Assembly (NCBI RefSeq): GCF_024298765.1
Contig: NZ_CP101210.1
From: Escherichia coli
GTDB taxonomy: Bacteria > Pseudomonadota > Gammaproteobacteria > Enterobacterales > Enterobacteriaceae
Reading direction: 5' to 3' (one strand)
DNA: 64,000 bases
Under the pieces are notes generated by a model. It did no database searches. It had not been told where the DNA came from and was given only the letters and a program-made list of their open reading frames with translations. This document shows positions 5,515-63,189 of the stretch, in pieces. The first letter of the stretch is position 1. Every line of letters begins with the position of its first letter. A program made the position numbers and the translations under genes.

Positions 5515-7206
5515 ATGTGGATTACGTCAGCAATGCTGAATCTGGATAAGCCTGGTGCCTGCGATCCCAGTGTGGAACGTCTGTTTGAAGGCTTTGCCTT
5601 CCTGATGGGACGTTTGCGTGAAAAGCTGGATGATGACCTGCCGGAGCTCACCGAAGGTCTGGTGAGTCTGCTGTGGCCGCACTATATGCGGACTATCCCG
5701 TCGCTGGCCATCGTTGAGTTCTCGCCTGACTGGCGTAGTCTGCGTCAGGCCGAAATACTGGCTGAAGGCTTTTCCGTTCTGTCCCGTCCTGTCGGGCCGC
5801 ATAAAACCGCCTGCCAGTACCGGGCGACCCGCGATGTGTTGCTACAACCGCTGCACCTTGCAGATGCCCGTCTCCATACTGAATCCGATGGCCGCTCTGC
5901 TATCCGTCTGCGCTTCGAATGCCCTGAAAAAGTGGACTGGAGTAAAGCCGGGATCGACAAAGTCGCCATTTTTCTTAACGCAGAGGCGCCGGTAAGTGCT
6001 GCGCTACATCTGGCAATGACCCGGCGTGTACATGCCATGTATGCGCGTCATGCCGGGACATATACCGGACGTCGTCAGTTTGACGGCTGGTGCAGACCCA
6101 TGGGCTTTGACGACAATGACTGCCTGTGGAAGAAAGCTGATACAGCCTTCAGTGGTTACCAGTTGCTGCTGGAGTATTTCAGCTTCCGTCCGAAGTTTAT
6201 GTTTGTTGAACTGCGCGGCCTCGACACCATTGGGCTCACTGCGGCCAGTACCTGGTTTGAAATCGACATTGTGCTCAGTGAAGCCTGGTCATCCGGTTTG
6301 CCTTTTGAGACAGAAAACTTCCGCCTGCACTGTGCGCCGGTTATCAATCTCTTTACCCTGGAAGCCGACCCGCTGATCCTTAACCCGCTGGATAACGAGT
6401 ACCTGCTCAGGCCGCTGCGTCTTCAGGATGGTCACACCGAAATTTACAGCGTCGATAACATTCACGGCTCGGTGAAGAACGGCAGACACCCTTATGTCCC
6501 GTTCACCAGCTTCCGGCACCGGGGCGGTATGATGCGCCACGATGCTCCTGAACGTTATTACCACACCCGTGTGAAACGGGGACCCTCCGGCCTGTATGAC
6601 ACATGGTTAGTTCTCGGGGGGCGTTCGTTCGAGCTGGAGCAGTTGTCCGATAAACCGGAGTCCCTCTCGATGCGAATCACCGCGACCAACGGGCAGCTTC
6701 CGCGCAGGGCGCTGGAAAGTACGCTCCTGGACAGGGTGGTCAAAACCGGCAAAGTCCCCGTCAGAGTCCTGAACCTGACCGCACCGACGATGCCACTGTA
6801 TCCCCCGGCAAATGACCGGTTTCACTGGCGGGTGATGAGTCACCTCGGATCAAACTTTCTCAGCATGATGGACAATCCGGAGGTGCTGCGGGGGACGCTG
6901 GCGCTCTATGACTGGACCGACGATGAAATGAACCGCCGCCGGCTTGAAGCCATCGTTGCTGTGAAGCACACCCTGATCCGCCGTTTTGAAAAGGGCTTTA
7001 TGCTCCGTGGCGTGGACATTGAGGTCACGCTGAATATGGATAATTTTGCCGGCGAGGGCGATGTGAATCTCTTCGGGGAGATGCTGCACCGTTTCTTTGC
7101 GCTCTATGCTGATGTTCACCTTTTCAACCAGCTCACACTGGTACTGCAACCCACAGGGAAACGACTGAGATGGAAAGAGAATCACAGCCAGCACGTACCG
7201 GGCTGA
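5515..7206 (+). CDS. tssF: type VI secretion baseplate subunit TssF (ImpG/VasA family), apparently lacking ~25-30 N-terminal residues
   Basis: Motif ERLFEGFAFLMGRLREKLDDDLPELTEGLVSLLWPHYMRTIPSLAIVEF is the conserved TssF N-proximal signature but sits at residue ~17; in-frame stop just upstream of 5515. Confidence 0.75.
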   Translation: MWITSAMLNLDKPGACDPSVERLFEGFAFLMGRLREKLDDDLPELTEGLVSLLWPHYMRTIPSLAIVEFSPDWRSLRQAEILAEGFSVLSRPVGPHKTACQYRATRDVLLQPLHLADARLHTESDGRSAIRLRFECPEKVDWSKAGIDKVAIFLNAEAPVSAALHLAMTRRVHAMYARHAGTYTGRRQFDGWCRPMGFDDNDCLWKKADTAFSGYQLLLEYFSFRPKFMFVELRGLDTIGLTAASTWFEIDIVLSEAWSSGLPFETENFRLHCAPVINLFTLEADPLILNPLDNEYLLRPLRLQDGHTEIYSVDNIHGSVKNGRHPYVPFTSFRHRGGMMRHDAPERYYHTRVKRGPSGLYDTWLVLGGRSFELEQLSDKPESLSMRITATNGQLPRRALESTLLDRVVKTGKVPVRVLNLTAPTMPLYPPANDRFHWRVMSHLGSNFLSMMDNPEVLRGTLALYDWTDDEMNRRRLEAIVAVKHTLIRRFEKGFMLRGVDIEVTLNMDNFAGEGDVNLFGEMLHRFFALYADVHLFNQLTLVLQPTGKRLRWKENHSQHVPG

Positions 7207-8015
7207 CGCAGGCCCTGGCCCTTAACAACGATATCTGGCGGGCCAGTTTTTATCGTTTCTGCCAGCTGCTGGAGCTGGAAAATCCGGACGGGCCAAAACT
7301 GGGCACGACCAGCCATCCGGGCGATGACCCGGTGCGATTCAGGCCCTGGCCCGGGATGGGATTCCCGGTCAGCACCCTGAAAGCGGTGGAGATCGACGAA
7401 GACCGTCCGACATTACCCCCAACGATCCGCACGACATTTCTCGGAATGTATGGGGTGGACTCACCTCTGCCGACGTCCTGGCTGGATGATATTGCGCAGC
7501 GCCGTGAAGGACATGAGGCGCTCACCTCATTTCTGGATATTTTCAGCCACCGCATCACCACCCAGTACTACCGGATCTGGCGAAAATATGCGTATCCGGC
7601 CACTTTCGAGGAGGGGGGGCGCGATGCCACATCGCAGTGTCTGCTGGGACTGGTCGGACTCGGTATACCCGGCACCGCTGAACAGGTGGCAACGCCGGTT
7701 TCCCGTTTCCTGGCCTTACTGGGTGCCATGCGATTACCCACCCGCAATGCTGAAGGCATCCGGGCTCTGGTGAGTCTGCTGGCACCGGATACCCGCGCAC
7801 TTATCACCGAACCCGATCCGGTTAAGGTCCATATCGATAACCGCAGTGGGCTGGGTGCCGGAAACCGCATCCGTCTTTCGCAGCGGGCCACGCTGGGTAA
7901 AACGGCAGGGGAAGCATGCAGCCGGCTCCTGATGACACTGGAAACAGCGGATCCGGACGAGGCGGAAGGCTGGTTGCCCACAGATAACCGGAGCAGGATT
8001 TACCGCCTTTCTTAG
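7170..8015 (+). pseudogene. tssG: type VI secretion baseplate subunit TssG (ImpH family), 3'-truncated at IS66 junction near 7970
   Basis: Overlaps tssF stop as in T6SS clusters; 281 codons versus ~330-350 expected; last ~15 codons are IS66-derived sequence read out of frame. Confidence 0.65.
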
Positions 8016-8066
8016 TGTTCAGGATCTTCAGGGTAGTCTCATCTGCATGCACCACCGGACGGTTTA

Positions 8067-8849
8067 TCAACTCGCGATGGAGTAACGCCGCCAGGGGAGA
8101 TAATGCGGCACCCGCCGCGCCAACCATGTCAGCCATCGAACTGACGGGCAGCCCGACACTGAACGGGCAAAGACCTGTTGCTGGCGATACAGAGGCAGGT
8201 GGTCACCGTATTTATTGATGATCACCTGTGTGATGACTGATGGCTCAACGGCACTTTTCGGGAGGATATGTGCCGGCATTTCACCGCTGAACACCTTCTG
8301 GCAACAGGAACAACTGTATTGCGGACGGACATAACGGTTCACCACGAAGTGAACGGGAATATACTCCAGCTTTTCACTCACCGCATCACGGATATAGTGC
8401 AGCGGCTCGTCACATTCAGGGCAATGGTCAGTGTCCGGCTGGATAATTTTTTCCACCCGTGGAAGATGAGCCGGTAAGGGTTTGCGTATCGGGCGTGAAC
8501 GGGACGCTTTTTCGTCTTCTTCAGGGGATTGCGGGAGCAGTTTATCCAGATGTGCGGTAAGCGCGGCGATATCGACATCAACATCCTCTTCGAACAGGGA
8601 GCGTTGCATACCAGCCAGCGTTTCACATTTTTTACCGAAGCGCTGTTGACGAACCAGTTTCAGCATTTCTTCCAGAAGCTGGATGCGCCGGCTTTTCTCC
8701 AGTAATTCCCGCTCTTTTTCGGCATTCTCCGACATGACTTTTTGTACCATGGTAAGTGCCATAGCACGCAGTTTTTCGATGTCATTCGTGGTGTTGAGAG
8801 CGGAGATATCCATACAGGGGAGTATACCACTCCAGATACGGATATTCAT
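8067..8849 (-). pseudogene. tnpC: IS66-family transposase TnpC, N-terminal portion (frameshift near 8140)
   Basis: 260-aa ORF with coiled-coil N-terminus, CPECDEPLHYI zinc motif and HLPLYRQQQVFAR, as in IS66 TnpC. Confidence 0.7.
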
Positions 8850-8855
8850 TATTTT

Positions 8856-9248
8856 TCACTGAGTTAGCAGTGTATTTTGCGTGTTTTCAGGGCGCAGTTC
8901 AGGTTCATTCTGCCAGCCCCATTTCGTCAGGTCATGTCCCTTAACCTGCTGCCAGTCAACACCGGCAATCAGCCAGTTAAACTCGTCGGGAGTTAGGTGC
9001 CAGGCAGCATCATTTGCACGTGGCCAGCGGAAGCTGCCTTTGTGCAGACGGCGGGTACACAACCACACCCCGTGTTTATCCCACCGGAGAACTTTGATAC
9101 GCGAACGGACTTTGTTAACAAAGACGAAGGCGGCTCCCTCATGCCATGTCGACCGGAGTTCATCCTGTATATACTGCGTCAGTGTGTCGATGCCCCGGCG
9201 CATGTCAACAGGTTTAATCGCGATGAAGACATTATCAGGACTGAGCAT
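8856..9248 (-). CDS. tnpB: IS66-family TnpB
   Basis: Internal start MLSPDNVFIAIKPVDMRRGIDTL... of ORF 8856-9542 matches IS66 orf2 pattern. Confidence 0.7.
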   Translation of the reverse strand: MLSPDNVFIAIKPVDMRRGIDTLTQYIQDELRSTWHEGAAFVFVNKVRSRIKVLRWDKHGVWLCTRRLHKGSFRWPRANDAAWHLTPDEFNWLIAGVDWQQVKGHDLTKWGWQNEPELRPENTQNTLLTQ

Positions 9249-9564
9249 ATTTGAGCGCCCTGAAGACATCGGTAAGTTGTGACGGCTGACAGCACATCCG
9301 TACTCCGCCGGGAAGGAAGAGCGTGACTGGCTCATTCGTGACGGGCTGTGGTACATCAGCATGCAGTGGTGGCGCAATATGAACGGGAAGAACGGTCGGT
9401 TCATTTGCCCGGCGTTCAGCTTTTGCGACATCCTGCGGCCATTCGCGAAGTGATGTGAAGGGAATATCGTTGAGTTCACAGTATTGCTGACGTGTAAGAC
9501 CACTGGCGCGCCAGGCAGCAACGTGCTGCCTTTTCTGTTCAATGGTCCATCGGGGTTTTGACAT
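9235..9564 (-). CDS. tnpA: IS66-family accessory protein TnpA
   Basis: 109-aa ORF immediately upstream of and overlapping tnpB in IS66 order. Confidence 0.55.
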   Translation of the reverse strand: MSKPRWTIEQKRQHVAAWRASGLTRQQYCELNDIPFTSLREWPQDVAKAERRANEPTVLPVHIAPPLHADVPQPVTNEPVTLFLPGGVRMCCQPSQLTDVFRALKYAQS

Positions 9565-9649
9565 TGATTATCTCCGGTAAGTTGGTGAATGAATGTCGGT
9601 AATGCTAACTGACTGAAAATCTCTGTGAAGATGACTTCCCCGTAACGAC

Positions 9650-10404
9650 ACCTTCTTTATCGCCTGCCGAATGACGCTGTTCAGCGATTCGATGGCTATC
9701 GTCGTGTCCGGGCTATTCTCAGACGGCAGTCTTAACGAAGGACTGCAGTTCGTGAATGCAAATCGCGTTTATCGAATAATGAGCGAGAATAACCTGTTGT
9801 TATTACATGACAAACCTTCACGACCGCAGAGGGAACATAAAGGCCCGAATATCGGTGAAGGAAAGCGACCCGCGCTGGTGTGCCGATGGCTTTGAGTTCG
9901 GTTGTGATGATGACGAAAAACTGCGTGTCACGTTCGCACTGGACTGTTGCGATCTTGAATCCATAGACTGGGCCGCAAGCACGGGAGGTTATGGCAAAGC
10001 AACGGTGCAGGATGTCATGTCAGGAGCGATAGAAAAACGCTTTGGCGATAGACCGGGATGGCCCATCCAGTGGCTGACCGATAACGGTTCGGCTTATACA
10101 ACTCATGAAACACGGCAGTTCGCCAGAGAGTTGAATCTGGAGCTCTGCACGACGGCAGTCAGTAGCCCTCAGAGTAATGGAATGAGAGAACGGTTCGTGA
10201 AAACGATGAAGAGCGATTACATCAGTATCATACCTAAACCGGACGGGTTAATGGCAGCAAAGAACCTTGCAGAGGCGTTCGAGCATTATAACGAATGGCA
10301 TCCGCATAGTGCACTGGGTTATCGCTCGCCACGGGAATATCTACGGCAGCGGGCCAGTAATGGGTTAAGTGATAACAGGTGTCTGGAAATATAGGGGCAA
10401 ATCC
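9650..10404 (+). mobile_element. IS2-like (IS3 family) element, 3' portion only; ends at IS2 right terminus GGGGCAAATCCA
   Basis: Encodes InsD-like C-terminal region; last ~150 bp identical to the IS2 fragment at 38287-38436. Confidence 0.7.
9671..10394 (+). pseudogene. insD: IS2-like transposase InsD (OrfB), 5'-truncated and frameshifted
   Basis: Frames 9671-9895 and 9807-10394 together give NANRVYRIM...WCADGFEF...WLTDNGSAY...[29 protein letters not shown]. Confidence 0.7.
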
Positions 10405-10650
10405 ATTTCGCAAGCAAAGACTCTGGTAAATACTCGTCATATTTATCCAGATCCTTATCAGGAACAACTGTAGCAGGCTCAAATTCTGAAGGTGCAAAAT
10501 GGCATCTGAATCGATCACGACTTGGCATGCTTCCGATCATTGATTGGCATCCTGCCAGTCGTATCGTAAGCGTAAACCGACCGCCGTATGTAGCCATTAG
10601 ACAAGAATTGGTAACTTAGACGCCCATCTGACACAGACGGACATCTAAGT

Positions 10651-11070
10651 ATGGAATTGCAGGACTGGCGAAAAGAACCTCGTAAAAAGTATTCGAATGA
10701 ATTCAAACTTCGTATGGTTGAACTGGCATCACAACCCGGTGCTTGTGTGGTCCAGATTGCACGAGAAAATGGCGTCAATGATAATGTTATATTCAAATGG
10801 CTCAGACTCTGGCAAAACGAAGGGTGTATATCGCAGCGTCTTCCGGTGACAACCACTTCTGACGCAGGCGTTGAATTATTACCTGTAGAGATAACGCCTG
10901 ATGAGCCGAAAGAACCGGTGGCTGCTCTTACTCCGTCTTTATCCACCCAGACTACTGTCAGTGCCAGCTCCTGCAAGGTGGAGTTCCGTCACGGTAACAT
11001 GACGCTGGAAAATCCTTCACCAGAGCTGCTCACTGTGTTGATCCGTGAACTGACCGGGAGGGGACGATGA
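10651..11070 (+). CDS. tnpA: IS66-family TnpA
   Basis: 139-aa ORF MELQDWRKEPRKKYSNEFKLRMVELAS...; overlaps tnpB start (ATGA). Confidence 0.7.
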   Translation: MELQDWRKEPRKKYSNEFKLRMVELASQPGACVVQIARENGVNDNVIFKWLRLWQNEGCISQRLPVTTTSDAGVELLPVEITPDEPKEPVAALTPSLSTQTTVSASSCKVEFRHGNMTLENPSPELLTVLIRELTGRGR

Positions 11071-11417
11071 TCTCACTCCCGTCAGGCACCCGCATCTGGC
11101 TCGTTGCCGGCGTTACCGATATGCGTAAATCCTTCAACGGACTGGGAGAACAGGTACAGCATGTGCTGAATGATAATCCCTTCTCCGGTCACCTGTTCAT
11201 CTTCCGTGGCCGACGGGGTGACACGATTAAAATCCTGTGGGCTGATGCTGATGGTCTGTGCCTGTTCACCAAACGCCTGGAGGAAGGCCAGTTTATCTGG
11301 CCTGCGGTGCGTGACGGCAAGATATCCATTACCCGCTCGCAACTGGCAATGCTCCTCGATAAGCTGGACTGGCGTCAGCCAAAAACATCCCGTCTTAACG
11401 CACTGACAATGTTGTAA
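11067..11417 (+). CDS. tnpB: IS66-family TnpB
   Basis: 116-aa ORF MISLPSGTRIWLVAGVTDMRKSFNGL..., canonical IS66 orf2. Confidence 0.75.
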   Translation: MISLPSGTRIWLVAGVTDMRKSFNGLGEQVQHVLNDNPFSGHLFIFRGRRGDTIKILWADADGLCLFTKRLEEGQFIWPAVRDGKISITRSQLAMLLDKLDWRQPKTSRLNALTML

Positions 11418-11447
11418 AAATGTCATGGCCGGATTATAAAAACGGTC

Positions 11448-12212
11448 ATGAGTCAGAAATACCTCATTCGGATCACTGAGCTGGAAAGGTTGCTCTCTGA
11501 GCAGGCTGAAGCCCTCCGTCAGAAAGACCAACAACTGAGTCTGGTTGAAGAGACGGAGGCCTTCCTGCGTTCTGCGCTGGCACGTGCCGAAGAAAAGATC
11601 GAAGAAGATGAGCGGGAAATAGAGCATCTGCGGGCCCAGGTGGAAAAACTGCGCCGGATGCTGTTCGGTACCCGTTCTGAAAAACTGCGTCGTGAAGTTG
11701 AACAGGCTGAAGCCCTGCTGAAACGACGCGAACAGAACAGCGATCGTTACAGCGGGCGTGAGGATGACCCGCAGGTTCCCCGCCAGTTGCGACAGTCGCG
11801 TCATCGTCGCCCGTTACCGGCGCATCTGCCCCGCGAAATAAACCGCCTGGAGCCAGAAGAAAGCTGTTGCCCGGAGTGTGGTGGTGAGCTGGATTATCTG
11901 GGGGAAGTCAGCGCAGAACAACTGGAACTGGTGAGCAGCGCCCTGAAAGTGATCCGCACAGAACGGGTAAAAAAAGCCTGTACAAAATGTGACTGCATCG
12001 TTGAAGCACCGGCACCGTCCCGTCCGATAGCGCGTGGTGTCGCGGGCCCGGGGTTACTTGCCCGCGTGTTAACGGGAAAATACTGCGAACACCTGCCACT
12101 GTATCGTCAGAGTGAAATCTTTGCCCGTCAGGGTGTCGAACTGAGCCGTGCGTTACTCTCCAACTGGGTTGACGAGCTCCTGCCATGGAACGTAGCACTC
12201 ACCAATAAATAA
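11448..12212 (+). pseudogene. tnpC: IS66-family transposase TnpC, N-terminal fragment (254 aa of ~520)
   Basis: Coiled-coil N-terminus, CPECGGELDYL zinc motif, HLPLYRQSEIFARQGVELSRALLSNWVDELLPW, then premature stop. Confidence 0.7.
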
Positions 12213-12437
12213 GTATCAATACGGCACTCCGTTAACGCTTACTGAAACGACGCCGGGGACCATCTTCTTTTGGGTAAAAAAGGCCGCGCCAGAATTCGAC
12301 ACGACCACTGCTATATGCGTATTATTCTGTTCCGGGAGATTGCCTCTCTTCTGGTTATTCAGCAATACAACGGACAAAAAGCACTGGCATAAATAACCCC
12401 TTGTTAAACGGAGAATAGTGATAATGTATTGACGCTA

Positions 12438-13685
12438 TTACTCATTTCTCATCTTCATCCTTCGGGTAAGCAGAGTCGCACAAATGAATCCCAGCAGACT
12501 AAATGCCACCATTACAGAAAAAACATAGTTATAGCCCTGTATGCCAGAAAAATTATCTAACAGCGAACCATAAAGCGTGTAAGCAAACATGGAAGGCATG
12601 TAACCAATAATGCACCCAAACGCCATTGCTGAACCAGCAAATTCTCTGGGGGTACCGATTTCATCCATTGGCGCAAAAAAAATTGCCCGTTGTGAAAAAA
12701 TGATTGCACCAAATCCAAGAGTTGCAGTCATTCCAAGATAAACATTCATTGAGTCGTGTGGTAGTTGAATAAAAAGTAGCATAGCGACTGCTGAAATAAG
12801 GAAAGTCCATTTCAGATAGATGACCGGAGAATGAGAAATTTTATCTGCGAGATAACCGCCAACTGGCCCGCCCACCATTTTTAGTCCGTACTGGTTAATA
12901 ATCCCGTAAGCACCCACGAGTGCAACGGGAAGGGCATAGATATCTTTCAGGAATGGTATGAAATATGTTAGCCCACAATATGCGGAGTACACAAAGAATA
13001 TACAAAATGAGGCCAGCCACAGATTTGGTGATTTAACGACATTCTTTATCCCCTTGAATATCTGTTTATTAACATCTTCGTCATTCTGTGGAATGGTCCT
13101 GTCGTCTGCATCCACAATAAAGTAGGTGATAATTCCAACAATAATGGTGATTAATGTGTAATAAACAAGACCAGCCTGCATGCCAGCTTTTCCTTCGCCA
13201 AACTGCACAAAGACGAATAAAGCGCCGGACGCAATTAATACATCCACGACTCCTCGTCCAGCTTCCAGAAAGCCGAACATACGTCCCTGTTCATCCCTGT
13301 TCCCCAACAGACGAACAGCTTTAAGTAGCACGGGCCAGTAGACCACTTCGCCAAAGAAAGCCATAGCACCAAAAGCTATAAGGTAACCAGAGAAGGGGGG
13401 TAATGTTGTGAGGTAAGCGCCGCACAGACCCACACCGATTAAACCTGCAGGAAGAAGTATTTTTTTGGAAAAGCGATCTGCTATATATAATGAACTAAAT
13501 AGTCCGATAGTCTGAACAGCAGCATATATTGTAAATCCAAAGCCAATCTGTGTATTAGTCAATCCCCAGTCAGCCTGCATAGGAACATAAAATACGTCCT
13601 TCATACTGGACAATTTGAAAATTGTCCCACCGCCAAGAATAAGGAAGCATAGCTTCATCCATTTATTCATCTGGTTATCCCCCAT
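12438..13685 (-). CDS. MFS transporter
   Basis: 415-aa polytopic hydrophobic ORF; start overlaps RidA stop (TAATG). Confidence 0.7.
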   Translation of the reverse strand: MGDNQMNKWMKLCFLILGGGTIFKLSSMKDVFYVPMQADWGLTNTQIGFGFTIYAAVQTIGLFSSLYIADRFSKKILLPAGLIGVGLCGAYLTTLPPFSGYLIAFGAMAFFGEVVYWPVLLKAVRLLGNRDEQGRMFGFLEAGRGVVDVLIASGALFVFVQFGEGKAGMQAGLVYYTLITIIVGIITYFIVDADDRTIPQNDEDVNKQIFKGIKNVVKSPNLWLASFCIFFVYSAYCGLTYFIPFLKDIYALPVALVGAYGIINQYGLKMVGGPVGGYLADKISHSPVIYLKWTFLISAVAMLLFIQLPHDSMNVYLGMTATLGFGAIIFSQRAIFFAPMDEIGTPREFAGSAMAFGCIIGYMPSMFAYTLYGSLLDNFSGIQGYNYVFSVMVAFSLLGFICATLLTRRMKMRNE

Positions 13686-14062
13686 TATTTGATAACCGCA
13701 ATGGCTTCAATTTCTATCAGCACGTCTTTCGGTAATCTGGCGACTTCAACACAGGACCTGGCCGGGTATTTGTCTGATGAGAAATATTCACTGTACAGAA
13801 GGTTAAATTGAGAAAAATTATCCATGTTACTGATAAAACAGGTTGTTTTTACGATGTTATCCATTCCGATTCCTGCAGATTCAATAATTGCCTTCAGATT
13901 ATCCATCGCTTGCCTGGTTTGCCTTTCTATAGTCTCGCCATTTACGGTTCCGTCTTCTGGTTTGAAAGGACAACATCCGGAAATGAACAATAAATTACCA
14001 GTTGATACTGCCTGTACATAGGGACCGATAGCTTTGGGGGCATGTTTAGTATCAATGATCAT
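13685..14062 (-). CDS. RidA/YjgF family reactive-intermediate deaminase
   Basis: 125-aa ORF MIIDTKHAPKAIGPYVQAV...SCVEVARLPKDVLIEIEAIA, typical RidA. Confidence 0.8.
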   Translation of the reverse strand: MIIDTKHAPKAIGPYVQAVSTGNLLFISGCCPFKPEDGTVNGETIERQTRQAMDNLKAIIESAGIGMDNIVKTTCFISNMDNFSQFNLLYSEYFSSDKYPARSCVEVARLPKDVLIEIEAIAVIK

Positions 14063-14083
14063 AAAAGTATCCTTTTAAATTTA

Positions 14084-15043
14084 TTAACAATATTTTTTTC
14101 TTAAATTCTTCAGAGTCTGAACAGAAACCTCAACACAACGATTTTGGGCTGCCATTAGTTCCTGTAATACAGAGTCAGATATTTTGGCAGGGTAGTAATA
14201 ATCAAGTGGCTTTATTTTCAGGTGTTCAAATGGTGCCTCTTTTACGGAGAATGCCCCTTCCAGAGAATATACGCCGCCAGTACCCTTTGGACGGGCAAAA
14301 GGTGAGGCATATGGGAAACATGTTTCGATGTTTATTCTGGTTAAAGAGGACTCTTTAACCAGAGTTTTAAAGCAGGTATCAATATCAATGCTTCCTTCTC
14401 CGACAGGAACACCACAGACAACCAGGTCTTCGCCGTTGCGTGTGACAATATGATCCTTGAAATGCGTGCTGTAAGCATAAGGAGCCAGTTTACGAACTGT
14501 TTCTACTGGTTCTTCCCATGCCATCATTCCATTACCTATATCACAGTGTGCTCCCACCCACTCAGAATTAACAGATTTGATAACTTCGATTATCTCGTCG
14601 GCAGTTTCATCTTCATGGTTTTCTATTGCCAGTTTAATTTTCTTTCTACTGAGTAAGGATGTCAGTGATTTTAACTGTTCTACTATTTCCGGATATTTCA
14701 GAGGGTTATATTCTCCTCTCCTGAACATATAAGTTCGGATAACTTCTGCTCCAAGTGCAGATGCAATTTCCACTGCTCTGGTGATAGCTTCACAGGAAGT
14801 GAATCGGGTATCTATCTCACAATAAAGACCATGAGAATCAATGGATTTTCTGACTTTTGACAGATATTCAGGAGATATACTGTTCAGGACACCAAATTCC
14901 GGATGCAGACCAACATCCGGAATGATATTAATTTCGACCCCATCCAGCCCCAGTTCACTGGTTTTATCAATGAAGTCGAAAATATCCATCATTCCCTGCT
15001 GAAAGAACAGATGATATGACTCAGTCTCAAGGCCTAGTTTCAT
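14084..15043 (-). CDS. sugar phosphate isomerase/epimerase (xylose isomerase-like TIM barrel)
   Basis: Start chosen at MKLGLETESYHL with GGAGG 7 nt upstream; family assigned from overall resemblance to sugar-phosphate isomerases, not verified. Confidence 0.6.
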   Translation of the reverse strand: MKLGLETESYHLFFQQGMMDIFDFIDKTSELGLDGVEINIIPDVGLHPEFGVLNSISPEYLSKVRKSIDSHGLYCEIDTRFTSCEAITRAVEIASALGAEVIRTYMFRRGEYNPLKYPEIVEQLKSLTSLLSRKKIKLAIENHEDETADEIIEVIKSVNSEWVGAHCDIGNGMMAWEEPVETVRKLAPYAYSTHFKDHIVTRNGEDLVVCGVPVGEGSIDIDTCFKTLVKESSLTRINIETCFPYASPFARPKGTGGVYSLEGAFSVKEAPFEHLKIKPLDYYYPAKISDSVLQELMAAQNRCVEVSVQTLKNLRKKYC

Positions 15044-15228
15044 GGCGAACCTCCATAGTATTTGAGACTGATTGTAGTTTTTTATACATTTGTAAAATGT
15101 GATCAAAGTAGAATAATTTCTCACTTAGTGAATAAATTTACTACCTGGTGTTATTTTGAGCCACTTTGGTGGACTCTGTTCTGCATCTGGTATAGCATTC
15201 AGATGTACTTTGTTCATGAGGTTATTAT

Positions 15229-15891
15229 ATGAAATCTATTGTTAATCATGAGTTTACTGAGGATGACAGGCAGCTTTTGCTCTCATATATTCCATTCATC
15301 GACAGTCTTGGTCAGTTCTTGGGTGAGTATTGCGAGATCGTCCTGCATAGTTTTGAGGACTTGCATCATTCCGTTATTCATATCGTTAACGGGCATGTGA
15401 CGGGGAGAGAGAAGGGGGCACCTGTAACAAATATAGCACTGGAAAAACTGGCAGAATTTAACTCAACAAACGATATGTGGGATGTCTATTTCAACCATAA
15501 AGGCGTTCGCCCTTTTAAATCATCGTCATCACTTATTCTGAATAAAAATAAAGAACCAGTAGGTATGATATGTATGAACTTTGCTCTGGATATGCCTCTT
15601 AATGCATTTATTGAAAACTTTGCAAAATCGTCAAACTGTAAAAACGAAAATTTCACTCAGGATATCAATAATCTTGTGCTTAGTCACCTTGAACCTGTTA
15701 AAAATATGGTTTACTCCAATAAGAATATACCAAGTAAAAACAAGAACTTTGAAATAGTAAAAGAACTTAATTCTATTGGGTTGTTTAAGTTCCCGGTTAC
15801 AACAAAAATTGTTTCATCGGTTCTTGGTATCAGTGCTAACACTATTTATAAACATCTCAGGGTATTAAATAATAAGGGGAAGGAGAATTAA
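15229..15891 (+). CDS. YheO-like transcriptional regulator (PAS-like N-domain plus C-terminal HTH)
   Basis: Motif CEIVLHSFEDLHHSVIHIVNGHVTGREKGAPVTNIALEKL matches YheO family; divergent from the isomerase operon. Confidence 0.7.
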   Translation: MKSIVNHEFTEDDRQLLLSYIPFIDSLGQFLGEYCEIVLHSFEDLHHSVIHIVNGHVTGREKGAPVTNIALEKLAEFNSTNDMWDVYFNHKGVRPFKSSSSLILNKNKEPVGMICMNFALDMPLNAFIENFAKSSNCKNENFTQDINNLVLSHLEPVKNMVYSNKNIPSKNKNFEIVKELNSIGLFKFPVTTKIVSSVLGISANTIYKHLRVLNNKGKEN

Positions 15892-16009
15892 GGTGTCTGT
15901 ATTCTGAACTTATAAGTAAGTTGTTTGTCTGAAGCGTATTGATATTTATTTTTCGGTTAGAGCAACTTTCTAGGGAAACAGATCGCGTATCCAGTTTGCC
16001 TGTCATTCC

Positions 16010-16290
16010 TAGATATGTTCAATGACGTAACGCAGCCATTTTTCTGGAGCCATATTGTTCAGACGGCATGTACCAATCCGCAGGTACAGCATCGCCGCAT
16101 CCTCAAGTAATGCCGGTAATTTGGGGCGTAATTCTGTTGCGCTTTTACTGAACACAATGCCGTATTCAGTAAGAAGTCCAAGAACATGATCTATCAGTTG
16201 TGTCCTTCCATCGAGATCAACCGATGCATTTTCAAAAAAGCCTGGACGTTCTGTAGGTCCAGACTTTTTATTGGTACCAGTCGTATAGTT
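16010..16290 (-). pseudogene. IS66-family transposase C-terminal remnant (no start codon)
   Basis: Hand translation ...AMLYLRIGTCRLNNMAPEKWLRYVIEHI* fits IS66 TnpC C-terminal pattern (A.L..LI.TC.LN...P..WL..V). Confidence 0.35.
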
Positions 16291-16823
16291 CTATATTGAT
16301 AGGTTTCAGCTATTGCTGTGCGTTGTTATAATCATTTTTCTGACGCCATTGATAAGATTTAACATGTTGTGCTGGATGCAATATTACATCATAGTTGAGT
16401 TCCCTTATTTCCTGTGGGCAGTGATGGGATGTCCCGCAAGCCTTCATCGCAACGGTCATTTTGGCTGTTATACCAGCCAGTTAAGCAGTTGGTTGTGAGA
16501 AAGTTTGATCTTTCCCGCGTGATTGCCACGAGCATTGATACTGAAAAGATAAAAGTTCGTTTTAGCCTGAGCGATGTCGGTAATTTTCTGTTCAATCATG
16601 GCCTTTCTCTTACTTTTGTGGTTAAAATTTATTCGCTATGGCGCAATTGAAAGCGGTCGTGAAGGTGGGGGAAGACTATCTCATCACTTACCATATTTCC
16701 GACATATTCTCACAACAAAATACCACGTAACTATTGATGAATATTGTTCTCTCCTGAGCAGCGTTTATGCTTTAATTGCTAAATCGATTTAATTAGTTTA
16801 GCAATTAGTATATTGGAGCCTTT

Positions 16824-17887: not shown

Positions 17888-19429
<1,542 letters not shown>

Positions 19430-19489
19430 TACCAGACAACCTCACAGATGTGAAGTTTTTACTGAAATAACAATGAATTAGAGGGTTAT

Positions 19490-20860
19490 ATGGATTTCGA
19501 TAAAATCGCCCAATCGTTGCTTCCTTTATTAGGTGGTAAGGAGAACATCGCCAGTGCAGCACATTGCGCCACTCGCCTACGGCTGGTACTGGTTGACGAC
19601 ACACTTGCCGATCAACATGCCATTGGCCAGATTGATGGAGTGAAAGGTTGTTTTCGTAATTCAGGGCAAATGCAAATTATCTTTGGCACCGGCGTGGTTA
19701 ATAAAGTCTATGCTGCCTTTATTCAGGTTGCAGGTATTAGCGAATCCAGTAAAGCAGATATCGCTCGACTCGCCGCTCAAAAACTCAATCCTTTTCAGCG
19801 AATAGCACGGCTACTTTCTAATATTTTTGTCCCCATCATTCCAGCCATTGTTGCTTCTGGTTTATTAATGGGGCTTCTGGGAATGGTGAAAACATATGGC
19901 TGGGTGAATACCGATAATGCGATTTATATCCTGCTGGATATGTGCAGTTCAGCCGCATTTATTATTCTCCCCATCCTTATTGGCTTTACTGCTGCTCGTG
20001 AATTTGGTGGAAATCCTTATCTTGGCGCGACATTAGGAGGGATTCTGACTCACCCGGCACTCACAAATGCCTGGGGCGTTGCTGCGGGATTTCAGACAAT
20101 GAACTTCTTCGGTTTTGAAATCGCCATGATTGGCTATCAGGGAACGGTTTTCCCCGTGCTTCTGGCAGTATGGTTTATGAGCATAGTGGAAAAACAGTTA
20201 CGCAGGTTTATCCCTGATGCTCTGGATCTCATTCTGACGCCATTTCTGACTGTCGTCATTTCTGGCTTTATCGCTCTTTTGATTATTGGTCCGGCAGGAC
20301 GAGCGTTAGGTGACGGTATCTCTTTCGTTCTCAGCACGCTGATTGCACACGCAGGCTGGTTAGCAGGGTTGTTATTCGGCGGGCTATATTCAGCGATTGT
20401 TATTACGGGTATTCATCATAGCTTCCACGCAATTGAAGCAGGACTTTTAGGTAACCCTGCAATCGGTGTTAATTTCCTGCTGCCTATTTGGGCAATGGCA
20501 AACGTTGCGCAAGGCGGTGCATGTCTGGCGGTATGGTTTAAAACCAAAGATACAAAAATTAAAGCAATCACCCTACCCTCGGCCTTTTCCGCAATGTTAG
20601 GGATTACTGAAGCCGCTATTTTTGGTATCAACCTTCGTTTTGTTAAACCTTTTATTGCGGCCTTAATTGGTGGCGCTGCCGGCGGTGCCTGGGTTGTCTC
20701 TGTTCACGTTTATATGACTGCCGTTGGTCTGACCGCAATACCCGGCATGGCAATCGTTCAGCCAACATCGTTGGTTAATTATATTATTGGAATGGTGATT
20801 GCTTTCGCTGTCGCTTTTAGCCTCTCTTTATTATTCAAATACAAAACGGACGAGGAGTAA
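19490..20860 (+). CDS. scrA: PTS sucrose-specific EIIBC component
   Basis: 456 aa; EIIB Cys motif AAHCATRLRL followed by polytopic EIIC. Confidence 0.9.
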   Translation: MDFDKIAQSLLPLLGGKENIASAAHCATRLRLVLVDDTLADQHAIGQIDGVKGCFRNSGQMQIIFGTGVVNKVYAAFIQVAGISESSKADIARLAAQKLNPFQRIARLLSNIFVPIIPAIVASGLLMGLLGMVKTYGWVNTDNAIYILLDMCSSAAFIILPILIGFTAAREFGGNPYLGATLGGILTHPALTNAWGVAAGFQTMNFFGFEIAMIGYQGTVFPVLLAVWFMSIVEKQLRRFIPDALDLILTPFLTVVISGFIALLIIGPAGRALGDGISFVLSTLIAHAGWLAGLLFGGLYSAIVITGIHHSFHAIEAGLLGNPAIGVNFLLPIWAMANVAQGGACLAVWFKTKDTKIKAITLPSAFSAMLGITEAAIFGINLRFVKPFIAALIGGAAGGAWVVSVHVYMTAVGLTAIPGMAIVQPTSLVNYIIGMVIAFAVAFSLSLLFKYKTDEE

Positions 20861-22269
20861 TGTCGATGCCTTCACAAATGCCCGCGATTTTACAGGCAGT
20901 GATGAAAGGTCAGTCCAAAGCACTGGCAGATGCCCACTATCCTTGTTGGCATCTCGCTCCCGTCACCGGACTAATGAACGATCCAAATGGCTTTTGCTGG
21001 TCTGGAGGCCGCTATCATCTGTTTTATCAGTGGAATCCACTGGCTTGTGATCATAAGTACAAATGTTGGGGGCACTGGAGTTCGACGGATTTATTGCACT
21101 GGCAGCATGAACCATTAGCGCTAATGCCCGATAAAGAGTACGACCGTAATGGTTGTTACTCAGGAAGCGCGGTTAATAATCAGGGCGTTCTCACACTTTG
21201 CTATACCGGTAATGTTAAGTTTGATGATGGCAGCAGAACGGCATGGCAATGTCTGGCCACCGAAAATAACCAGGGCGGGTTTGATAAACTAGGCCCTGTC
21301 ATATCGTTACCTGATGGTTACACCGGACATGTTCGTGATCCAAAAGTCTGGAAGCACAACAGCCAATGGTACATGGTGCTTGGCGCGCAAGATAAAGAGA
21401 AACGGGGGAAAGTGCTGCTGTATTCCTCTGTCGATCTGAATACCTGGTCTTTTCATGGAGAAATTGCTGGTAACGGTCTGAATGAAATAGATAACGCAGG
21501 ATACATGTGGGAATGTCCTGATCTTTTCGCCCTTGATGGTGAATACATTCTCCTCTGTTGCCCCCAGGGAATGGTGCGCGAACATGAGCGCTATCTGAAT
21601 ACTTATCCCTGCGCCTGGCTACATGGACAGTTTGATTACGAGACAGGCAAATTTACGCATGGCGCTTTCTCAGAGCTGGATGCGGGATTTGAATTCTATG
21701 CACCACAGACGATGGAAGCCCCGGACGGGCGACGATTGCTGGTCGGCTGGATGGGGGTTCCTGATGGCGAAGAGATGTTGCAGCCAACCAGAAAGCATCA
21801 TTGGCAGCATCAAATGACCTGTTTTCGCGAACTCTCATTCCAGAAGGGAAAATTGTTTCAGATGCCAATCAGGGAACTCGCGCAACTGCGTGAAGCTGAA
21901 CACTTCTGGCAAGGAAAAGCGGATCATGCGCCGCATGTCGAAATTGAACGCCTGGAAATGGACATCATTCCGTCGGGTGAGCTGTATCTGAATTTTGGCA
22001 ATGCGCTGGCACTGCATCTTAATGACGATGGTATTCAACTACAGAGGAGAAGCCTTGCAGGGCAAGAGAAACTAACTCGTTACTGGCGAGGAAGCGTAAC
22101 GTCACTGAAGATTCTCTGTGACAGTTCCAGCGTAGAGATATTCATCAATAATGGTGAAGGTGTAATGAGTAATCGTTATTTTCCCCATCATCCAGCTTCG
22201 CTGATATTACAGGGTGAGTCTGACGTCACGTTACGCTACTGGTCGCTACGCGCCTGCATGGTAGAATGA
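20860..22269 (+). CDS. scrB: sucrose-6-phosphate hydrolase (GH32)
   Basis: 469 aa with GH32 motifs [27 protein letters not shown]. Confidence 0.9.
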
Positions 22270-38063: not shown

Positions 38064-38425
38064 CCTCGCGCATACAGCCGGGCAGTGACGTCATCGTCTG
38101 CGCGGAAATGGACGAACAGTGGGGCTATGTCGGGGCTAAATCGCGCCAGTTCGCCCGGATGTTGGGACTTGAACCGAAGAACACGGCGGTGCGGAGTCCG
38201 GAGAGTAACGGCATAGCAGAGAGCTTCGTGAAAACGATAAAGCGTGATTACATCAGTATCATGCCCAAACCAGACGGGTTAACGGCAGCAAAGAACCTTG
38301 CAGAGGCGTTCGAGCATTATAACGAATGGCATCCGCATAGTGCACTGGGTTATCGCTCGCCACGGGAATATCTACGGCAGCGGGCCAGTAATGGGTTAAG
38401 TGATAACAGGTGTCTGGAAATATAG
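37982..38425 (+). pseudogene. chimeric ORF: IS1 InsB N-terminus (56 aa) fused in frame to IS2 InsD C-terminus
   Basis: [16 protein letters not shown]...GAKSRQ then [34 protein letters not shown]...NRCLEI; junction at CGCCAG 38143-38148. Confidence 0.75.
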
Positions 38426-48104: not shown

Positions 48105-48180
48105 TGGTGCCCGGACTCGGAATCGAACCAAGGACACGGGGATTTTCAATCCCCTGCTCTACCGACTGAGCTATCCGGGC
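48105..48180 (-). tRNA. pheV: tRNA-Phe (anticodon GAA)
   Basis: Reverse complement reads GCCCGGATAGCTCAGTCGGTAGAGCAGGGGATTGAAAATCCCCGTGTCCTTGGTTCGATTCCGAGTCCGGGCACCA; pheV rather than pheU inferred from neighbouring yqgA-speC. Confidence 0.95.
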
Positions 48181-59978: not shown

Positions 59979-59994
59979 CTCATGTTAAGTGCCT

Positions 59995-60035
59995 TTGCCG
60001 GATAATATAAAAAGTTATCCGGCAAATTATTTTTT
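59995..60035. terminator. bidirectional terminator between yggM and TRAP dctM
   Basis: Stem TTGCCGGATAA/TTATCCGGCAA, loop TATAAAAAG, flanking T-run. Confidence 0.55.
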
Positions 60036-61335
60036 ACATTAGCCCTAGTAGCTGTGGAATGAACAAGGATATTTGCGGGATGTAAGTGATCATCATCAAC
60101 GCGATTAACAATGCGGCATAAAATGGCAGCAATGGTTTGATCAAATGTTGAATCTTCACACCTGAAATAGAACAACCAACAAATAGCGCACTACCCACCG
60201 GCGGTGTTAACAGCCCAATACAAAGGTTAGCCACCATCATAATACCGAAATGTACCGGATCCATTCCCAGCTCTTGTGCAATCGGCAAGAAGATTGGTGT
60301 GAAGATTAGTACAGCCGGTGTCATGTCCATAAAGATGCCGACAATTAATAAGACGATATTAATCAGCAGCAATATGATCAGTGGGTTATCAGAAATCCCC
60401 ATCAATGCGTCGCTGATCATATAAGGAATATCAGCATTGGTCATTGCCCAGGACATGCCCACGGAAAAACCGATCAACAGTAATACAATCGAAGTGGTAA
60501 CAACCGATTCCAGAATCAGTTTGGGTAAATCGCGCCATTTTACTTCCCGGTAAATCAGCACCGAGAGAATAAATGTGTAGACAACGGCAATTGCTGACGC
60601 TTCAGTTGCGGTAAAAATGCCGCCCAGAATGCCGCCCATTACAATGAACACCAGAAGCAAACTTGGTAAGGCATCCAGAAAAGCTTTACATGCCTGAGCA
60701 AAGGTTGCTCTTTCTGAAAGTGGGTAGCCACGGCGTTTAGCAATAATGCCGCAGACTATCATTACCGCGAGACCCATTAAGATCCCTGGCAAATATCCCG
60801 CCATAAATAACGATGCTACAGAAACGCCGCCAGCTGTCAGGGAAAACACAATTAACACGTTTGAGGGCGGTATCAGTAATCCAGTAATACAAGATGAGAC
60901 GTTTACAGCGGTAGAAAATGCCGGATCATAACCTTCTTTGGTCTGAATGGGATTCAGTGTGCCACCAACGGCAGCAGCTGCCGCAACGGCTGAACCAGAA
61001 ATGGAACCAAACATCATATTCGCCAGGACGTTCACATGACCAAGCGAACCAGGAACGCGGCCAACCATTACCTGGGCGAGGTTAATCAAACGTATCGCAA
61101 TACCGCCGCTGTTCATCAGTGTTCCGGCAAAGATGAAAAAGGGGATTGCCAACAGGGCAAAGTTATCCAGTCCATTAGCCAATCGTTGCGAAACAGTGAT
61201 TGCCGCGATATCCCAGGGAAACATCAACAGCATTGAAGCTACAGTCGCAATAGCGATTGAGAACGAAATGGGCACACCAATAAAGACCAGCACAAAAAAA
61301 CAGTCAAACAGTGTAATCGCGATATAACTATCCAT
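60034..61335 (-). CDS. TRAP transporter large permease (DctM family)
   Basis: 433-aa polytopic ORF; start overlaps DctQ stop. Confidence 0.8.
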   Translation of the reverse strand: MDSYIAITLFDCFFVLVFIGVPISFSIAIATVASMLLMFPWDIAAITVSQRLANGLDNFALLAIPFFIFAGTLMNSGGIAIRLINLAQVMVGRVPGSLGHVNVLANMMFGSISGSAVAAAAAVGGTLNPIQTKEGYDPAFSTAVNVSSCITGLLIPPSNVLIVFSLTAGGVSVASLFMAGYLPGILMGLAVMIVCGIIAKRRGYPLSERATFAQACKAFLDALPSLLLVFIVMGGILGGIFTATEASAIAVVYTFILSVLIYREVKWRDLPKLILESVVTTSIVLLLIGFSVGMSWAMTNADIPYMISDALMGISDNPLIILLLINIVLLIVGIFMDMTPAVLIFTPIFLPIAQELGMDPVHFGIMMVANLCIGLLTPPVGSALFVGCSISGVKIQHLIKPLLPFYAALLIALMMITYIPQISLFIPQLLGLM

Positions 61336-61847
61336 TAACTGGCCTCCTGCGCAGGTTGTTTCAGTTGTTGAATGCTTTGATTAATAAAACACAAGGCATA
61401 AAACATCATCACCACTCCACTTAATGGCAGAATGATATATACGTATCCCATCGGTATTTGCATTGCGGCAGATACCTGTGATGTTGCCAGTGTTTTATCA
61501 ATTAATTTCAGGCCACCAGTCACAATGACCGAACCGGCAAAACCTAAAATAAGAACGTTAATGACTATACTAAGAAGTAATTGCTTGCGCTTATTCAGGG
61601 CGAGAGCAAATAAATCGATAGAGAGATGTCTCTGCGCGCCGACGGTATATGCAGCACCTAATAATCCTACCCAGATCATCAAAAAGCGTGCCAGCTCATC
61701 GGTTAATGTACTTGGCTGGTTAAGTACGTAGCGGCTAAATACTTGCCAGACTACGCATACAACCAGAGCAAGCATTACGGCGACAGAAAACGCGGCAATG
61801 ACGCGGTCTACCGCAAGTTTCAGGCGGTTAAATATCATTGTAAGCAT
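61335..61847 (-). CDS. TRAP transporter small permease (DctQ family)
   Basis: 170-aa 4-TM ORF between DctP and DctM. Confidence 0.75.
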   Translation of the reverse strand: MLTMIFNRLKLAVDRVIAAFSVAVMLALVVCVVWQVFSRYVLNQPSTLTDELARFLMIWVGLLGAAYTVGAQRHLSIDLFALALNKRKQLLLSIVINVLILGFAGSVIVTGGLKLIDKTLATSQVSAAMQIPMGYVYIILPLSGVVMMFYALCFINQSIQQLKQPAQEAS

Positions 61848-61882
61848 CCTGGAAAATCAGGGCCAGAGACTGGCCCGAAATA

Positions 61883-62869
61883 TTATTGAGCAGCGTTGTC
61901 GAATTTCTCTAACAAAGCAGCTTGTTTTGGATCTTTTTTGAAGTCGTCAAACAGAGGTTGAACTGCGGCACGGAATGGGGCTTTATCAACCTTAACGATT
62001 TCACCACCCATAGCTTTCGCCTGAGCACGTGTGTCAGCGTCAATTTTTTCCCACAATTTTTGTTGATAAGCTTCGGATTTCTTCGCCGCTGTTTCGAGGA
62101 TTTGTTGCTGTTCTGGGGTTAATTTATTCCATGTTTTGGTGGAGATAACCAAAAAGTCAGGAATTGAGGCATGTTCATCTTCAGAAAAGACTTTGGCAAT
62201 TTCGATATGTCGAGTCTGCACCCAGGAAGGCACGTTATTTTCTGCGCCATCTACTACACCTTGTTGCATCGCAGTATAAACTTCGCCAAATGAAATTGGA
62301 GTGGGTGAGCCACCCATCAGTTCAATCATTTTGATGGTGGTCGGGCTTGGCTGAACACGAATTTTCAGCCCTTTAAGATCTTCTGGCTTAGTAATCGGTT
62401 TTTTCGCATAGAAACTGCGAGTACCCGCTACATAAGCTGATAAAGCAAAAAAGCCTTTATCTTTTGTTGAATCCATAATTTCTTTACCAACTTCACCAAA
62501 AACCACTTTGTTGAAGTGCGCCTGATCTTTAAATAAGAACGGCAAATTATAGATAGCATAAATATTATCAAAAGACTCCAGATCACTGGCGGAACCTTTG
62601 GTCATATCCAGTGCACCATTTTGCAACAACTCCATAGTTTCTCGCGCATTACCCATCTGGCTGCTGGGGTAAATACGGATCACCATATTACCTTTTGACA
62701 GCTGTTTTACTTCTTTCGCCAGCTCTTCAAAACTCTGATGTACAACATGACTTCTTTCCAGGTTGTGTGCTAACTTTAACGTCACTTTTTCTGCGGCGTT
62801 TACGCCAGTGCTAACCAGAGCCAGCAAGGATGCGCAGACTAATGAGCGGGTAAATGACCTCATTTTCAT
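61883..62869 (-). CDS. TRAP transporter substrate-binding protein (DctP family)
   Basis: 328 aa with signal peptide MKMRSFTRSLVCASLLALVSTGVNA. Confidence 0.8.
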   Translation of the reverse strand: MKMRSFTRSLVCASLLALVSTGVNAAEKVTLKLAHNLERSHVVHQSFEELAKEVKQLSKGNMVIRIYPSSQMGNARETMELLQNGALDMTKGSASDLESFDNIYAIYNLPFLFKDQAHFNKVVFGEVGKEIMDSTKDKGFFALSAYVAGTRSFYAKKPITKPEDLKGLKIRVQPSPTTIKMIELMGGSPTPISFGEVYTAMQQGVVDGAENNVPSWVQTRHIEIAKVFSEDEHASIPDFLVISTKTWNKLTPEQQQILETAAKKSEAYQQKLWEKIDADTRAQAKAMGGEIVKVDKAPFRAAVQPLFDDFKKDPKQAALLEKFDNAAQ

Positions 62870-63136
62870 AAAAAAACTCCCTGTTGAAGAATGGAAATTG
62901 GTTGATATCTAATTGTGCTTATCAGTGCTTTGTGCGACAAATTGGTTAACCTGTCTGACAACTTGTCTATGTTTATCACAACTTGAAATAAAGTCAGAAA
63001 TTAAATATTAATTTTGTGCGCCAGGTTGTACATGTTTATAATCAATAAATGATGAGTAAATATTCACTAAATATATATAATAAATATCGTCGATATTTAT
63101 TCTGTAAGAAATATATTTTTGCCGAAGTTAATTAAC

Positions 63137-63150
63137 GGGGGGGGGGGGGG
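63137..63150. repeat. homopolymeric G14 tract (C14 on the TRAP/hemW coding strand)
   Basis: Read directly: ...ttaacGGGGGGGGGGGGGGtaaaag...; between hemW stop and AT-rich region upstream of dctP. Confidence 0.9.
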
Positions 63151-63189
63151 TAAAAGAAGTGATTAATGCGCCCGCAGGCGCATTAATGA

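Follow-up and report, generated by a model that had tools for sequence, protein, structure and literature searches.

Positions 7975-12242 of a 64,000-nucleotide stretch of Escherichia coli DNA (contig NZ_CP101210.1; the whole stretch is hereinafter designated the window) very probably represent a non-functional pile of insertion sequence (IS) debris, formed by insertions, microhomology deletions and one loss through recombination between two IS2-group elements, A and B. From sequence comparison, the pile appears to contain the remains of six ISs from four families, and none of its elements is predicted to be able to transpose by itself. All the pieces fall into catalogued IS families, and features of this kind are already known; that genomic islands decay through ISs and through microhomology is textbook knowledge. 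The region is a case of ordinary genome decay, more complex than described in an earlier note on the same DNA, which had been made from the letters alone.

Pieces of the IS region

The earlier note had proposed two different IS66-family elements in opposite orientation around an IS2-group orfB fragment, and this outline is borne out, approximately where the note had placed it. Specifically, the open reading frames (ORFs) for IS66 tnpA, tnpB and an N-terminal tnpC lie on the minus strand, followed on the plus strand by an integrase-core orfB fragment and then a second IS66 set. Their Pfam and NCBIfam matches, far stronger than chance would give, have E-values from 1e-12 to 1e-95, DNA identity to named ISs is 88-98%, and the RefSeq annotation gives the IS genes of 7975-12242 as pseudogenes. 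IS names used here are RefSeq product names, not ISfinder matches; under these names, the pieces did not turn out to be complete elements of other families. Three pieces had escaped the note: the ISEc39 scrap at 9652-9696 (or 9707), the helicase gene end at 10406-10492 and the IS21-family left end at 10493-10560. In addition, the region does not end at 12215, as the note had it, but at 12242, to which the right repeat of the right IS66 runs. The comparison set for all genome counts was 5,426 complete genomes. The features are:

5528-7979, plus strand: remnant of a type VI secretion system (T6SS) locus, with tssF lacking its first 91 nt and tssG (7170-7979) lacking about 280 nt at its 3' end
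7975-7979, no strand: TGCCC, 5 bp common to tssG and the ISEc49 tnpC, putative deletion scar
7975-9651, minus strand: ISEc49-like IS66 remnant (hereinafter the left IS66), left end at 9651, right end gone
8813-7975, minus strand: left IS66 tnpC, ending at about codon 280 of 521, with a 1-nt deletion at 8158 that causes a frameshift
8856-9248, minus strand: left IS66 tnpB, intact (PF05717, TnpB_IS66, E=4e-34)
9235-9564, minus strand: left IS66 tnpA, intact (NF047593, E=2e-13)
9652-9696, minus strand: internal scrap of the ISEc39 (IS256 family) transposase gene, abutting the ISEc49-like left end exactly, with similarity to 9707
9692-10245, plus strand: relic A, a frameshifted ISEc48-like IS2-group orfB fragment beginning at about InsD codon 67
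10242-10405, plus strand: 3' end of IS2 copy B with the right inverted repeat, the last 164 bp of a genuine IS2
10406-10492, minus strand: 3' end of an ATP-dependent helicase pseudogene, native DNA and the target of IS2 B
10493-10560, plus strand: left terminus of an IS21-family (ISSso4-like) element, 68 bp with repeated TGGCAT motifs
10566-12242, plus strand: apparently internally deleted IS66-family element of 1677 bp (hereinafter the right IS66), both inverted repeats present
10566-10589 and 12219-12242: left and right repeats of the right IS66
10651-11070, plus strand: right IS66 tnpA, intact
11067-11417, plus strand: right IS66 tnpB, intact
11448-12212, plus strand: right IS66 tnpC-delta, 254 amino acids (aa)

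IS66-family elements are reported to carry three genes, GTAAGCG-type repeats and an 8-bp duplication. The right IS66 resembles ISEc47, IS682 and ISEc23 in having GTAAGCG... repeats at both ends together with intact tnpA and tnpB, but it is 1677 bp long compared with about 2.53 kb, and 283 codons, essentially the whole DDE domain, are absent. Its repeats, GTAAGCGTAAACCGACCGCCGTAT and GTAAGCGTTAACGGAGTGCCGTAT, begin GTAAGCG, match at 20 of 24 positions and align with the ends of IS682, themselves set by an 8-bp duplication in strain 48 (window 8759-8766 aligned twice). The stop codon of tnpC-delta is followed by ATACGGCACTCCGTTAACGCTTAC, the right inverted repeat.

The internal gap of the right IS66 can be placed precisely. 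Residues 1-242 of IS682 TnpC correspond to 11448-12173 (94%) and residues 521-537 to 12159-12209 (88%), in one frame, and the 5' 726 nt of tnpC are 94.7% identical to ISEc47 and 88% to IS682. In ISEc47, the closest by tnpC, the motif CTCCAAC(T/C)G(G/T)GTTGACG stands at two sites 849 bp from each other; the window retains a single hybrid of the two, and the deletion joint falls in GTTGACG at 12168-12174. The 849 bp amount to 283 codons, so that the frame is kept, and TnpC residues from about 243 to 520 are gone, with a Pfam DDE match at profile positions 1-49 of 284 only. Both IS66 copies had been described as truncated. This is correct for the left copy, whose right end is gone, whereas the right copy appears not to be truncated but internally deleted with both ends kept.

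The left IS66 is 98.3% identical over 1.68 kb to ISEc49 of ATCC 25922 (L008 4001-5681), with one gap, at window 8158, and its TnpA protein is identical to that of ISEc49 (WP_000042910.1). It shares with ISEc49 the gene order tnpA-tnpB-tnpC and the left end, but it is without tnpC codons from about 281 to 521 and the right end, and is fused to tssG instead of closing with an inverted repeat. Its tnpC retains the LZ_Tnp_IS66 and zf-IS66 domains and positions 2-33 of the 284-position DDE profile; lacking a complete DDE TnpC, it is a remnant and not a functional member of the family. Paired inverted repeats and an 8-bp target duplication are absent: tssG sequence replaces the right end and, with that end deleted, a target duplication cannot exist. 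Copies in several unrelated contexts start matching within a base or two of 9651. The ISEc49 right inverted repeat was sought in ATCC 25922 to confirm repeat pairing and gave no convincing match, so the left end at 9651 is set by context comparison only. As the note had stated, neither IS66 has an intact tnpC; indeed no intact IS66 TnpC is encoded in the whole window, in line with its view that none of the elements is likely autonomous.

In strain 48 (L002 6589-9121), a complete IS682 lies inside the tnpC of an ISEc49-like element, with a clean 8-bp duplication. Compared with the window, the tnpC part of that ISEc49-like element is 91% identical and the tnpA/tnpB part 98.7%; at the sequence level, ISEc49-like ISs appear to be mosaic across strains.

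The ISEc39 scrap is identical to the ISEc39 tnp gene (L007 2001-2056) at 54 of 56 positions (96%). Neither a transposase gene nor ends of an IS256-family element are present, only this internal stretch of 45-56 bp. Its similarity runs to 9707, past the joint with the IS2-group relic, and the switch from one to the other occurs at a shared ATGGC, 9692-9696. The joint of ISEc49, ISEc39 and relic A is carried by 60 genomes. The fragments had been called nested; the ISEc49-like end abutting the ISEc39 interior appears to be the sole true nested insertion of the region, and elsewhere the description does not apply.

Between IS2 B and the right IS66, native DNA and an IS21 tip intervene. The segment 10406-10492 is 97% identical to EV36 (L013) and STEC711 (L009), where RefSeq has a partial helicase; the native context in these two strains is ibrAB-perC-hypothetical gene-hypothetical gene-helicase'. 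The adjoining 10493-10560 is 93-95% identical to DNA directly upstream of istA in ISSso4-family copies, including the intact copy of strain 8GC. No ist genes are present, and the IS21-family element is represented by its left terminus alone. The same joint of helicase stump, IS21 end and IS66 left end is found in STEC711, 18 kb downstream of the intact T6SS there, which suggests that the IS21-family and IS66 insertions are old. The alternative that 10406-10565 is a tyrosine-integrase fragment, suggested by strains 48 and 222, was rejected, as the integrase fragment is part of the 12.5 kb deleted from the window (see below). The intact ISSso4-type IS21 copy of 8GC, which lies within a TPR gene, is not in the window.

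At the left border of the pile, the T6SS remnant is 98.2% identical to positions 18529-20980 of STEC711 L009, which lie inside a complete T6SS locus. The full core set (tssA-M, hcp, vgrG), intact in STEC711, is reduced in the window to the 5'-cut tssF and the 3'-cut tssG. The latter matches Pfam T6SS_TssG (E=2e-56) over model positions 2-255 of 304, and both are partial pseudogenes in RefSeq. Homology of tssG to STEC711 ends at 7979 and ISEc49 homology begins at 7975; the joint is present in about 60 complete genomes. Because it lies inside both genes and shows 5 bp of microhomology, the tssG/tnpC joint is probably an illegitimate microhomology deletion scar rather than a product of transposition.

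The other T6SS edge has a different character. At 5527/5528, tssF is cut 91 nt into the gene and joined to a 73-aa ORF without a Pfam match, and no IS adjoins this edge. The joint left by this deletion has no relation to the IS pile, and ISs therefore do not account for the entire loss of the T6SS. The proposal that serial insertions and deletions removed the rest of the T6SS thus names the right kind of history for the tssG side, with its TGCCC scar, but leaves out the IS-free edge at 5527/5528 and the replacement of DNA past tssG (see below).

The IS2-group chimera and the 12.5-kb deletion

The IS2-like piece matches NCBIfam IS2 TnpB with E=1e-94 and had been taken for one IS2-like copy lacking its 5' half. 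About 46% of the element is indeed missing on the 5' side of relic A, but the piece does not appear to be one copy. Specifically, it seems to be a chimera of two IS2-group elements with the crossover at 10242-10245. Relic A is 88-91% identical to an intact IS3-family element of STEC2018-553 and 87% to ISEc48. Identity to K-12 IS2 is about 71% for copy A of strain 222 and 75% for the whole IS2-like piece of the window. Copy B, in strain 222, is a complete 1331-bp element, 95.8% identical to K-12 IS2A. The window equals copy A of strain 222 at 100% through 10245 and has two mismatches to copy B over 10246-10434. At sites that tell A from B, all 13 over 10181-10241 are A-type and all seven over 10246-10297 are B-type. 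At the right end, 41 bp agree with the IS2 right inverted repeat at all positions but one.

The hallmarks of IS2 are orfA-orfB, a programmed -1 frameshift, a DDE (rve) domain, two inverted repeats and a 5-bp duplication. Compared with IS2 and ISEc48, the piece keeps the orfB integrase-core (rve) domain, but it is two elements joined, with orfA, the frameshift site and the left repeat absent; only orfB codons from about 67 to 301 and the right repeat are left of an IS3-family, IS2-group element.

Strain 222 and about 57 other genomes have A and B as direct repeats separated by 12.5 kb. The order after A in this long form is an integrase fragment, a gene for a 1652-aa protein with an AAA domain, a gene for a 515-aa hypothetical protein, IS debris with a group II intron, and IS2 B. 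The window has instead the head of A, the tail of B and the right flank of B. This short form, found in 3 of the 5,426 genomes, corresponds to a deletion between A and B of 12,516 bp, probably lost via recombination between direct repeats of different IS2-group elements. The 4.4 kb from 7900 to 12300 are 100% identical to ECJXMCRH7 and 8GC and 99.3% to FDAARGOS_1287 (L017), and no other complete genome of the set has them in one piece.

Deletion by recombination between direct IS repeats is a classical route of bacterial genome reduction. As in such deletions, there were two direct copies, the intervening DNA is lost and one hybrid is left; here, however, the partners are different IS species, only about 73-85% identical (about 73% overall and about 85% near the crossover).

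In strain 222 (L003 17528-24033), the 1652-aa AAA-domain and 515-aa hypothetical proteins of the lost DNA adjoin the integrase fragment, and about 57 related islands have them. The two could be a candidate defence-type gene pair.

Order of events and competing readings

The joints suggest an order of events. An IS21-family element would have landed just downstream of the helicase pseudogene, and an ISEc47/IS682-like IS66 would have landed about 70 bp inside the left end of that element; this old step is common to STEC711. In a second step, 849 bp of the tnpC of the right IS66 would have dropped out between two imperfect direct repeats of 19 bp, the crossover falling in GTTGACG; the right flank of the element would later have been exchanged, leaving no target duplication. 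In a third, the ISEc49-like IS66 would have inserted into an ISEc39 copy, and microhomology deletions would have joined the broken tnpC to tssG (TGCCC) and the ISEc39 stump to the IS2-group relic (ATGGC), removing the ISEc49 right end and the T6SS genes past tssG. The genuine IS2 (B) would then have inserted beside the helicase stump. The most recent step, confined to the three short-form genomes, would be the recombination of A with B, which removed 12,516 bp and left the chimeric orfB fragment.

Several points weigh against this history. The identities and limits of the pieces, the sequences of the joints and the alternative arrangements in related genomes are observed; their order is inferred from joints present or absent in a handful of genomes rather than from a phylogenetic tree. 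Comparison of related islands, as the earlier note had advised, yields an order through strain 222, STEC711 and others, but a proposed one. On the tssG side, STEC711 DNA downstream of tssG contains Zorya II, ibrAB and other genes, and the interval from tssG to the helicase stump is wholly different DNA in strain 222 and STEC711. This difference points to replacement, in related strains or in this lineage, of the DNA past tssG, and not to one simple deletion. The history also leaves the following without an explanation. GTATC at 10561-10565 is an orphan 5 bp that match neither the IS21 end nor IS66; where intact ISSso4-type copies have CCAGTC followed by ACTCC, the window has CCAGTC followed by GTATC. 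The flanks of the right IS66, GTCGTATC and TGAAACGA, form no 8-bp target duplication. Similarly, copy B in strain 222 has no 5-bp duplication (flanks CCAAG and TTTCG), from which it follows that its left flank, too, is rearranged.

The crossover itself adds to these difficulties. In the lineage of the window, A and B share just 4 bp of perfect identity (GACG) at the crossover, so that the mechanism may be either RecA-dependent homeologous exchange or microhomology-mediated deletion. The deletion is also present in FDAARGOS_1287, but there the parents switch between 10193 and 10208, in a 14-bp identical tract 35-50 bp further left. This genome also has a patch of 22 single-nucleotide polymorphisms within 11159-11531, all of them in the right IS66, in its tnpB and the 5' portion of its tnpC. 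The two crossover points reflect either more than one deletion event, or one event plus gene conversion from other IS copies; in near-identical islands, they hint at recurrence of the deletion or conversion of its product.

Of the other readings, the simplest has three pieces only, namely two 3'-truncated IS66 copies around one 5'-truncated IS2-like copy, nested. The ORF and domain content fits it at first sight, and RefSeq labels the right tnpC as 'missing C-terminus', but the reading is very unlikely: the right IS66 retains the last 17 tnpC codons and the right inverted repeat, the IS2-like piece changes parent within itself, the ISEc39, helicase and IS21 pieces intervene, and there is neither an IS2 end inside an IS66 nor an IS66 end inside IS2. 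The deletion between A and B could also be turned around, with the short form ancestral and the 12.5-kb block of strain 222 and its relatives inserted later. Nothing favours this directly, beyond the fact that two sequences alone cannot separate deletion from insertion. It is highly improbable, as the insertion would have to recreate both an A-type 3' tail and the complete 5' 1.17 kb of IS2. Moreover, an A-type tail with its integrase-fragment context is also found in strain 48, and in STEC2018-553 a larger integrase fragment follows an A-type element that is intact. About 57 genomes have the long form, against 3 with the short form. Assemblies classically collapse at repeats, and the chimera with its missing 12.5 kb might be such a collapse over repeated IS2. 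The parents, only about 73% identical, are too different to collapse, however, and three complete assemblies, made independently by different laboratories and from different hosts, show the short form, one of them with a different crossover point; an assembly artefact is almost certainly not the explanation.

The right IS66 might, by contrast with its place in a dead pile, be a live non-autonomous element moved in trans by a full-length IS66, with TnpC-delta as a possible regulator. It retains both inverted repeats, tnpA and tnpB, its in-frame deletion leaves a 254-aa ORF, and full-length ISEc47, ISEc23 and IS682 relatives are common in E. coli; in principle, it could be moved by a transposase supplied from elsewhere. 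This reading is nevertheless improbable. All 49 genomes with the GTTGACG joint have one copy each, always with the same right flank and context, and no second context of the deletion derivative, and hence no sign of movement, was found among the 5,426 genomes. The 100% identity among copies indicates recent shared descent rather than selection, the element has no target duplication, and there is no full-length IS66 in the window. It is very doubtful that the 1677-bp element is a trans-mobilisable miniature IS66 whose TnpC-delta, having a leucine zipper and a zinc finger but no catalytic core, binds IS66-type ends and damps related full-length copies. We therefore retain the reading as IS debris.

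The debris pile has small significance beyond bookkeeping, but gives a fine-detail view of gene loss from the pheV island, in which the T6SS is down to two broken genes, a 12.5-kb block has gone and an IS66 has been gutted between short repeats. Two features are mildly unusual: the right IS66, which has lost its interior but keeps both ends and an in-frame stump of TnpC, and the deletion, whose partners were different IS species and which shows two apparent crossover points among near-identical islands. In annotation, a 'missing C-terminus' call may conceal an internally deleted element with both ends, and a single-looking IS fragment may be a recombinant that marks a deletion.

The pheV island and neighbouring features

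The window is chromosomal DNA, and its sole tRNA gene is a tRNA-Phe gene at 48105-48180. In the near-identical strain 8GC, the same tRNA-Phe gene lies beside a tyrosine integrase, yqgA and speC. These neighbours mark it as pheV, and the IS region accordingly lies within the pheV genomic island of E. coli. The island also has a TIR-domain gene, sucrose (scr) genes and raffinose-type genes. Window segments 25852-30625 and 59979-63189 are not present in 8GC.

A third IS66 C-terminal remnant had been placed at 16010-16290. The remnant is real, but it lies elsewhere, shifted by about 100-190 bp, and about half of the span given for it is IS-derived:

15916-16100, minus strand: ISCro1-like (IS66 family) 3' terminal remnant, about 185 bp

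What the remnant has in common with ISCro1 is the right inverted repeat and the final 52 codons of tnpC, but just these 185 bp or so survive in the window. It is 83% identical in nucleotides to ISCro1 (L012 3201-3374) and matches Pfam DDE_Tnp_IS66_C (E=5e-6). The repeat, GTAAGTTGTTTGTCTGAAGCGTAT at 15916-15939, is degenerate; ISCro1 has GTAAGCGACTCGTCAGAACCGTAT there. The 52 codons (16104-15949) contain three in-frame stops and are 65% identical in amino acids to ISCro1 TnpC residues 472-523. Homology across thousands of ISCro1 copies ends at window 16100, and 16101-16290 matches an unrelated hypothetical-protein region elsewhere.

Derivation of this remnant from the lost half of either IS66 was considered and rejected, as it is ISCro1-like, has 44% aa identity to IS682 TnpC and lies on the wrong strand for the right copy. 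Against the left-type TnpC of strain 48, it gave no significant match at E<=0.01; a 26% match with E=0.007 emerged only when the word size was set to 2 and composition correction was off.

The 10-mer CCAGTCGTAT occurs in the window only at 10555-10564, in the left flank of the right IS66, and at 16277-16286, past the ISCro1 remnant. The idea that the right IS66 once lay at 16280 was rejected: a synthetic joint of 10406-10565 and 16288-16487 is contiguous in no genome, and the IS21 end accounts for six of the ten bases. The repeat is probably a chance match.

Between the right IS66 and the ISCro1-like remnant, 12243-15915 is a block of four genes with low GC content (about 40%), encoding an MFS transporter, RidA, a sugar-phosphate isomerase/epimerase and a YheO-type PAS-HTH regulator. 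The block is flanked by the facing right ends of two different IS66-family elements, with no target duplication at either; it resembles a composite transposon, but its ISs are unrelated. A further IS2 3' fragment lies in the same island at 38126-38422, covering InsD residues 203-301 with 94% aa identity; in 8GC, it stands beside an IS1 fragment.

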